From: Escherichia coli
Lineage (GTDB): Bacteria > Pseudomonadota > Gammaproteobacteria > Enterobacterales > Enterobacteriaceae
Reading direction: 5' to 3' (one strand)
Assembly: GCF_016026235.1 (NCBI RefSeq)
Contig: NZ_CP065613.1
DNA: 64,000 bases
Part shown: positions 51,158-52,577 of the stretch, piece after piece
How positions within the stretch are numbered: the stretch's first letter is position 1
Layout of the letters: each line of letters starts with the position of its first letter
Notes under the pieces: generated by a model
Database searches by the model: none
The model's input: the letters and a program-made list of their open reading frames with translations, nothing else
What the model was told of the DNA's origin: nothing
Translations under genes and position numbers: made by a program

Positions 51158-51320
51158 TTAGTACTTCCAAGAACATCCGAGAAAGTCCAATTATTCCTTA
51201 AAAATCAATGCTTGCAGCGACTTTTACGTCCTGTGTCTTCCGAGGTTGTCCGTTGAAATCCGGATGTTATTGGGGGCATAATTGGGGGCATCTTAACTTC
51301 GATTAGAAATGTGCCCCCAA

Positions 51321-52577
51321 ATGAAGCTTAACGCCAGACAGGTCGAGACCGCAAAGCCAAAAGACAAAACCTACAAAATGGCCGATGGTGGCGGTTTGTA
51401 TCTTGAGGTTTCGGTCAAAGGTTCCAAATACTGGCGCATGAAATACAGACGTCCCTCTGACAAAAAAGAGGATCGCCTCGCTTTTGGTGTTTGGCCTACT
51501 GTGACGCTTGCTCAGGCAAGAGCAAAACGCGATGAAGCTAAAAAGCTTTTAGTACAGGGCATAGACCCAAAAGTCGTACAAAAAGAAGCTCAGGCCGAGA
51601 ATTCGGGGGCATATACTTTTGAAACTATCGCCCGAGAATGGCATGCCAGTAACAAGCGTTGGAGTGAAGACCATCGATCGCGTGTTCTTCGCTATCTTGA
51701 GCTTTATATCTTTCCTCATATTGGTTCGTCCGACATTCGGCAGCTTAAAACCAGCCACCTGTTAACCCCGATTAAAAAAGTTGATGCCAGTGGCAAACAC
51801 GATGTCGCTCAGCGCCTGCAACAGCGCGTCACGGCCATTATGCGTTATGCCGTACAGAACGATTACATCGACTCAAATCCAGCCAGCGATATGGCCGGTG
51901 CGCTATCGACAACCAAAGCGCGACATTACCCTGCTTTACCTTCTAGCCGGTTCCCTGAGTTTCTTGCACGTCTTGCTGCCTATCGCGGCCGCAAAATGAC
52001 GCGTATTGCAGTCGAGTTATCTCTACTTACCTTCGTTCGCTCTAGTGAGATGCGATTTGCCCGATGGGATGAGTTTGATTTTGATAACGCCTGCTGGCGG
52101 ATACCGGCGCGGCGTGAAGAAATCGAAGGTGTGCGTTACTCCTATCGTGGGATGAAGATGAAAGAGGAACATATTGTTCCATTGAGCACTCAGGCTCTAG
52201 CTTTGCTGGATGAGTTGAAGAAGCTTAGTGGAGATAATCCTAGACTGTTTCCCGGTGATCATGATCCCAATAAAGTTATGAGCGAAAACACAGTTAATAA
52301 TGCGCTCAGGACTATGGGCTACGACACACAAACGGAAGTATGTGGGCATGGTTTTAGAACAATGGCGCGTGGTGCTTTGGGGGAGTCGGGGCTTTGGAGT
52401 GATGATGCGATAGAACGTCAGTTAAGCCACTCGGAGCGCAATAATGTTCGTGCAGCTTATATCCATACTTCAGAGCATTTGGACGAACGTCGATTGATGA
52501 TGCAATGGTGGGCGGATTTCCTATCAGCAAATCGTGAGACTTTCGTAACACCATTTGATTTTGCAAAAAAATATTAA
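51321..52577 (+). CDS. intB: P4-type phage integrase (tyrosine recombinase) adjacent to tRNA-leuX
   Basis: About 418 aa from MKLNARQVETAKPKDKTYKMADGGGLYLEVSVKGSKYWRMKYR...; characteristic P4-integrase N-terminus and C-terminal catalytic region (HGFRTMARGAL...RAAYIH); directly 3-prime of leuX. Confidence 0.9.
   Translation: MKLNARQVETAKPKDKTYKMADGGGLYLEVSVKGSKYWRMKYRRPSDKKEDRLAFGVWPTVTLAQARAKRDEAKKLLVQGIDPKVVQKEAQAENSGAYTFETIAREWHASNKRWSEDHRSRVLRYLELYIFPHIGSSDIRQLKTSHLLTPIKKVDASGKHDVAQRLQQRVTAIMRYAVQNDYIDSNPASDMAGALSTTKARHYPALPSSRFPEFLARLAAYRGRKMTRIAVELSLLTFVRSSEMRFARWDEFDFDNACWRIPARREEIEGVRYSYRGMKMKEEHIVPLSTQALALLDELKKLSGDNPRLFPGDHDPNKVMSENTVNNALRTMGYDTQTEVCGHGFRTMARGALGESGLWSDDAIERQLSHSERNNVRAAYIHTSEHLDERRLMMQWWADFLSANRETFVTPFDFAKKY

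Follow-up and report, generated by a model that had tools for sequence, protein, structure and literature searches.

Repeats before the integrase gene of a leuX island in Escherichia coli probably represent arm-type sites of a P4-type attachment region

Introduction

The presence of closely spaced repeats between a tRNA gene and an integrase gene raises the question of whether they serve recombination, the control of integrase expression, both, or neither. We addressed this in an E. coli stretch of 64 kb (hereafter, the window), in which the initial annotation had seen three copies of a motif around the start of an integrase gene. It had proposed that they could be integrase arm-type binding sites or an autoregulatory element, and that such sites would define the attachment region of a P4-like island. 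We compared the locus with satellite phage P4, with P4-like loci from IMG/VR, and with complete E. coli genomes. The homology, the conservation, and the covariation of the repeats with the arm domain were computed here, while Int binding and repression are taken from passages of the P4 literature.

The repeats match the annotated arm repeats of P4

The motif TTGGGGGCA is found in three exact copies at 51270-51278 (+), 51282-51290 (+), and 51312-51320 (-), all inside 51 bp and directly followed by the ATG of the integrase gene at 51321. The two direct copies and the inverted one were thus correctly seen, and they are the sole exact copies in the 64 kb window (none elsewhere on either strand). 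A given 9-mer is expected by chance 0.49 times per window when both strands are counted, and the probability of two extra copies at most 60 nt either side of the first is about 4e-7. The combination of two direct copies 9-14 bp apart with a downstream inverted one did not arise in any of 300 dinucleotide shuffles. Window-wide enrichment is absent when one mismatch is allowed (12 found versus 17 expected); hence, the signal is that of a local cluster.

The region reads ...ccggatgtta TTGGGGGCAT aa TTGGGGGCAT cttaacttcgattagaaatg TGCCCCCAA ATGaag.... The copies and positions given initially hold, but the direct unit is longer than noted: it is ATTGGGGGCAT, which occurs twice with a start-to-start distance of 12 bp. 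We therefore describe the cluster in 12-bp units, whose shared core is GGGGGCAY. Repeat 1 is at 51270..51281 (+; TTGGGGGCATAA), repeat 2 at 51282..51293 (+; TTGGGGGCATCT), and repeat 3, inverted, at 51309..51320 (-; it reads TTGGGGGCACAT on that strand). The inverted copy is flanked by two in-frame ATGs, at 51309 and 51321. The count of three stands for exact copies and leaves out a degenerate fourth one, TCGGGGGCATAT, at 51603..51614 (+) inside int.

These units have annotated counterparts in P4. The GenBank record of this phage (X51522/NC_001609, labelled L001 in the coordinates quoted here) contains six units annotated "attP arm sequence repeat". Two are direct and upstream of int, one is inverted at the int start, one is inside int, and the remaining two are on the other side of a 20-bp core. 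The first four (L001 737-748, 749-760, 776-787 (-), and 1070-1081) align without gaps with repeats 1, 2, and 3 and with the intragenic copy, and are identical to them in sequence. The proposal of integrase arm-type sites is borne out by this position-for-position match.

The similarity to P4 extends beyond the repeats. In a BLAST comparison with phage records, 51134-52518 and satellite phage P4 share 88% identity, and the part between the attachment core and the int start is 96% identical, without gaps. The tRNA gene is leuX (51073..51157, +), a tRNA-Leu(CAA) identified with ARAGORN, annotated as tRNA-Leu in near-identical E. coli genomes, and the integration target of P4. Its upstream neighbours are ahr and the idn genes, as in E. 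coli. Integration of P4 in a leucyl-tRNA gene is mentioned in passages of two articles (PMC7286903, PMC2951348, citing Pierson & Kahn 1987, Cali 2004, and Piazzolla 2006). The 3' end of leuX, inside the tRNA-Leu(CAA), is the 20-bp core GAGTCCGGCCTTCGGCACCA at 51138..51157 (+); it equals the attP core of P4 (L001 605-624) and marks the attL junction in the window. The leuX core, the arm repeats, and int are all homologous to P4, in agreement with the idea of a P4-like attachment region.

The adjacent gene (51321..52577, +) encodes an intact P4-type tyrosine integrase of 418 aa with the Pfam domains Arm-DNA-bind_3 (E 4e-26), Phage_int_M, and Phage_integrase. It shares 91% identity with P4 Int and has retained the catalytic motifs, and its arm domain is 99% identical to that of P4 (one residue differs). 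P4 Int has 435 aa from the homologous ATG, is annotated with 440, and differs from the window Int in its C-terminal tail. Use of the ATG at 51309 instead of that at 51321 would give a protein of 422 aa, and annotations differ in this respect, the GenBank CDS of P4 starting at the first ATG and RefSeq at the second.

Overall, it is highly probable that the three repeats belong to a P4-type attachment site, as its arm-type sites on the int-proximal side, and that they double as the operator through which the int promoter (Pint) is autorepressed. The arm repeats of P4 are already described and annotated in GenBank, and the window copy holds nothing new in this respect: the description of the sites dates from 1987 (Pierson & Kahn) and that of their regulatory role from 2006 (Piazzolla). 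P4 has the same repeats, intragenic copy, 20-bp core, Pint -35 and -10, and leuX target. The window differs from P4 in being the attL junction of a decayed prophage, without the far-arm repeat pair, the second core, and vis.

Conservation of the repeats and the far end of intact prophages

We studied conservation in a set of 24 sequences: 22 P4-like loci from IMG/VR, P4, and the window. Conservation amounts to 95-100% in the repeat units, versus 84-88% in the flanking non-coding DNA. Within repeat 1, GGGGGCAT is invariant in all 24 sequences; 10 of the 11 positions of repeat 2 are invariant, as are five of the six positions of the Pint -35; and repeat 3 is invariant throughout. The initial annotation had made its proposal depend on conservation of the motif in related int regions, and the motif is indeed invariant in the 22 related loci. 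At a broader scale, the att-int junction is present over at least 80% of its length in about 718 of 5,426 complete E. coli genomes.

The same set bears on the start of the gene. In ten of the 24 sequences an additional A follows the inverted copy, so that the first ATG is no longer in the reading frame of int. Hence, 51321 is the conserved start. These same ten sequences keep the inverted copy, and coding therefore does not explain why ATGTGCCCCCA is conserved. The intragenic copy TCGGGGGCATAT shows no conservation beyond that of coding sequence (7 of 14 positions are invariant in this set, and synonymous sites vary), and on these data it is doubtful that it has a function as a site.

Intact prophages have a second set of sites. 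Strain A27, which carries an intact P4-like prophage, and nine IMG/VR prophages contain the repeat pair GGGGGCACAAAAGGGGGCAT 10-13 kb downstream, followed after about 74 nt by a second core. The layout of P4 is the same. The search for the motif at the far boundary, suggested at the outset, was thus positive in P4 and in ten intact relatives but negative in the window and in near-identical genomes: no far-arm GGGGGCA pair occurs in the window, nor 20-30 kb downstream in the latter. A second core is likewise absent from the window and from those 20-30 kb of near-identical genomes; in the window, GAGTCCGGCCTTCGGCACCA remains single even with three mismatches or indels.

The far-end core of intact prophages lacks one G (GAGTCCGGCCTTCGCACCA) relative to the tRNA copy and to the P4 attP core. 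This was observed at L086 27836-27854 and in the second cores of L089, L091, L094, L095, L112, L114, and L117. The missing G may mark the point of strand exchange. An IHF site has been reported for P4; the IHF consensus WATCAANNNNTTR has no match with at most one mismatch in 51100-51340.

The int promoter lies among the repeats

A consensus scan of the window placed a promoter TTGAAA-18-CATAAT at 51253-51282, with the -35 hexamer TTGAAA at 51253..51258 (+) and the -10 hexamer CATAAT at 51277..51282 (+). This independent prediction equals the annotated Pint of P4: in record X05947 the -35 is at 270-276 (window 51252-51258) and the -10 at 295-300 (window 51277-51282). The -10 hexamer straddles the boundary between repeats 1 and 2 and takes its bases from both. 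The inferred transcription start, at about 51289, falls within repeat 2, and repeat 3 lies over the translation-start region.

According to passages in PMC2951348 and PMC7286903 (citing Piazzolla 2006 and Pierson & Kahn 1987), P4 Int directly binds DNA near the int transcription start and represses its own promoter. The same two sources mention that the excisionase Vis also lowers int expression in P4, possibly at the RNA level. The suggestion of an operator or promoter element is therefore in keeping both with the position of the annotated -35 and -10 relative to the repeats and with these accounts of P4 Int self-repression.

The following mechanism can be proposed. The Arm-DNA-binding N-terminal domain of the adjacent Int would recognise the 12-bp units. 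In an intact element, the arm sites, the far-arm pair, and the 20-bp core in leuX would be brought into a recombination complex. Int bound to the three repeats, which supply the Pint -10 (repeats 1 and 2) and lie over the transcription start (repeat 2) and the translation-start region (repeat 3), would result in negative autoregulation. We infer that the window copy could still be bound and repressed by Int. In two other lineages, L046 and L083, promoter scans detected no consensus site within the repeats, and the overlap of operator and promoter may thus not be family-wide.

State of the element at leuX

The window contains only two segments of P4: the attL-int segment (51134-52518) and a psu-to-cos segment at 57572..58279 (-), identified by blastn and tblastn against P4 and by the Pfam profile Psu. 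The latter is 98.9% identical to P4 at the nucleotide level and encodes residues 11-190 of psu, the first 10 codons being gone. IS1 homology begins at 58280, where it abuts psu and where P4-like DNA stops. The comparison with P4 detected no vis, cI, epsilon, alpha, sid, or delta in the window. Judging from this gene content, what is left is the truncated remnant of a P4-like satellite.

Where P4 has the cargo genes gop-beta-cII, the window has instead an RT_UG5-nitrilase gene (52669..55409, +), identified with PADLOC and split by a frameshift into two ORFs that match positions 1-150 and 231-913 of the profile. Relatives annotate it as "RNA-directed DNA polymerase, frameshifted". RT_UG5-nitrilase is a defence reverse transcriptase of the DRT class. 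Beside this gene is an ORF of about 1.3 kb for a DDE_Tnp_1 transposase (55426-56715, -); it corresponds to the approximately 10% of the query that is unmatched in FORC_031 and other best-matching genomes. The satellite remnant is joined to the rest of the leuX island, which includes sugar PTS genes and others.

Some strains, FORC_031 among them (L084 10597-18162), have another integrase-bearing element immediately at leuX. There, the P4-like int and its repeats are shifted downstream by about 7.5 kb and lie beyond a degenerate core at 17978. This type of arrangement is a tandem accretion at leuX.

The far arm, the second core, and vis are missing; hence, a role of the window sites in excision and recombination is probably defunct. 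Autoregulation of Int, whose gene is intact, is the sole function that could remain. One may go further and see the repeats as pure fossils, i.e., as true P4 arm repeats by descent that are no longer bound or used in this genome. The extent of the loss speaks for this, because nothing but int/attL and psu-cos is left (the far arm, the second core, vis, cI, alpha, sid, and delta are gone) and because the cargo gene is frameshifted and IS-disrupted. Against it, the full-length Int retains the catalytic motifs, its arm domain is nearly identical to that of P4, and the promoter and the three sites are unmutated, so that any Int made should bind. Recent decay and loss of function cannot be told apart from sequence alone, and we regard complete disuse as unlikely, if a real enough prospect to be borne in mind.

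Repeat motifs follow the arm domain in the P4 integrase family

The comparison with other P4-family islands, also suggested initially, revealed the same geometry with lineage-specific motifs. More distant P4-family integrases (35-58% identity) are preceded by other motifs, TAGGCCCA, TAGGCACCT, TTGGGGGCTT, and TGTTGGTA. Each of these four has direct copies spaced by exactly 12 bp and a downstream inverted copy, an arrangement seen in 0 of 300 shuffles. The loci of these other lineages have no complete tRNA in the tRNA scans, and their targets are known from partial 3' ends.

Two comparisons separate the arm domain from the rest of the integrase. The first involves L052, which carries TAGGCCCA, and L057, which carries TAGGCACCT. 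Their att regions are 88-91% identical, and int past codon 105 is 83-95% identical at the nucleotide level, whereas the repeats, the promoter, and the arm domain (int codons 1-105) are only 48-68% identical. The second is the converse case of L087 and L096. Their arm domain is 67% identical to that of the window Int and the remainder only 40%, and they have the identical G5CAT repeats, with an unrelated spacer and at the end of another tRNA. The contrast between L052 and L057 and the converse case of L087 indicate that the motif goes with the arm domain and not with the part of the protein that binds the core or catalyses recombination. The pattern GGGGGCATAATTGGGGGCAT...TGCCCCC is kept in the L087/L096 and L092 lineages around a wholly different spacer.

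The mosaic between L052 and L057 occupies locus coordinates 1381-1800, where TAGGCCCA gives way to TAGGCACCT, and its flanks are 83-95% identical; from its sequence, this block looks like a swapped arm cassette. L087 and L096 belong, with L098, L103, and L116, to a lineage with an int of 403 aa. In this lineage and in L092 the tRNA 3' end is GGTTCGAATCCTGTAGGGCGTACCA, and the integrases, arm domain excluded, are 40% identical to that of the window.

These results raise the possibility, which we put forward tentatively, that the arm repeats, the int promoter, and the N-terminal arm domain form an exchangeable specificity cassette across the P4 integrase family. Its geometry might be that of two direct sites 12 bp apart and an inverted site 20-30 bp downstream, swapped independently of the catalytic part, a generalisation that we hold just as tentatively. 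A targeted full-text literature search, whose reach did not extend to the primary P4 papers, returned no description of such a rule.

The covariation with the arm domain also helps to weigh a different kind of DNA site. Excisionases/RDFs typically bind direct repeats that are spaced by about one helical turn and located between core and int. The repeats could accordingly be boxes for an excisionase (P4 Vis, of the AlpA family), not Int sites, and the 12-bp spacing of the direct copies is compatible with this. Vis, too, down-regulates int, as passages in PMC7286903 and PMC2951348 have it, although its action was proposed by the P4 authors to be on int mRNA and that of Int on promoter DNA (from a passage in PMC2951348). 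The AlpA homologue differs between the CP4-57-type motif classes (88-90% versus 66% identity to K-12 AlpA). The sole comparable pair in this respect is L061/L066 versus L074, in which the RDF and the motif both differ, and no alpA homologue is within reach of L052 or L057. The presence of an inverted copy and of a pair on the opposite arm is a layout typical of Int arm sites and tells against excisionase boxes. So does the behaviour of the motif, which swaps with the Int arm domain in an int/att context that is about 90% identical and is common to integrases with similar arm domains that are 40% identical elsewhere. The vis gene is, in addition, absent from the window. It is thus very unlikely that the repeats are Vis boxes.

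A conserved TCCG-rich block, CTTCCGAGGTTGTCCGTTGAAATCCGG, is found at 51238-51262, just upstream of and overlapping the -35. This block may hold the Vis boxes, whose reported location is between core and int.

We regard as extremely improbable a function in RNA, in which repeats 1/2 would pair with the inverted repeat 3 in a leader hairpin that occludes the int start or stabilises or terminates the transcript: the RNA of 51268-51335 does fold at -23.1 kcal/mol (z-score -2.9), the CP4-57-type leader at -28.7 kcal/mol (z-score -3.7), and covarying inverted repeats would keep a stem too, but the transcript from the annotated -10 starts at about 51289, past the 5' arm of the stem, and is not significantly structured (-1.3 kcal/mol, z +0.77), the stem has no downstream T-run, and the second direct copy at 12 bp, the far-arm pair, and the co-swapping with the arm domain are left unexplained. 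A leader hairpin or attenuator was rejected for the Pint transcript because a stable stem needs a start upstream of repeat 1.

Discussion

If the repeats are arm-type sites that double as the Pint operator, they can be set beside those of other integrases. A parallel in layout is the IntA of the E. coli K-12 element CP4-57, at ssrA. Like the window, it has two direct copies 12 bp apart and an inverted one upstream of the integrase gene. Unlike it, the motif is TAGGCCCA (TAGGCACCT in a sister lineage), and the two integrases are only about 36% identical. The intA repeats (L085 1091-1141) have a sigma-70-like promoter, TTGATA-17-TATTGT, embedded among them. No exact copy of TAGGCCCA was found at the far end of CP4-57.

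Lambda-type arm sites are likewise short repeats on both attP arms, direct and inverted, off the core, and are also found beside an integrase with a separate arm-binding domain. They differ from those of P4 in the fold family of the arm domain (Pfam Arm-DNA-bind_3 in P4), in motif, and in layout. The N-terminal domain of lambda Int binds the arm sites (Ross & Landy 1982, as cited in a passage of PMC4111918). The overlap of the sites with the int promoter, which gives autoregulation, is a P4 feature contrasted with lambda. It has a counterpart in the IntS/TorI system of KplE1, where arm-type sites also overlap the integrase promoter in attL and Int represses itself. The KplE1 paper draws the parallel with P4 in one of its passages (PMC2951348). 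The integrase lineage and the motif of KplE1 are nevertheless unrelated to those of P4, and its RDF represses via DNA binding, whereas Vis was proposed to act on RNA.

For the annotation of this genome, the analysis identifies the attL junction of a P4-like remnant at leuX and locates the promoter and operator of int. Half of the integration module is missing, and the island is probably fixed in place as a result. For the family, the constant geometry of the repeats, combined with lineage-specific motifs that go with the arm domain, offers a simple way to predict arm sites and int operators from sequence in the numerous enterobacterial P4-type islands. If cassettes are indeed swapped between integrases, this could spare co-resident islands cross-regulation and cross-excision.
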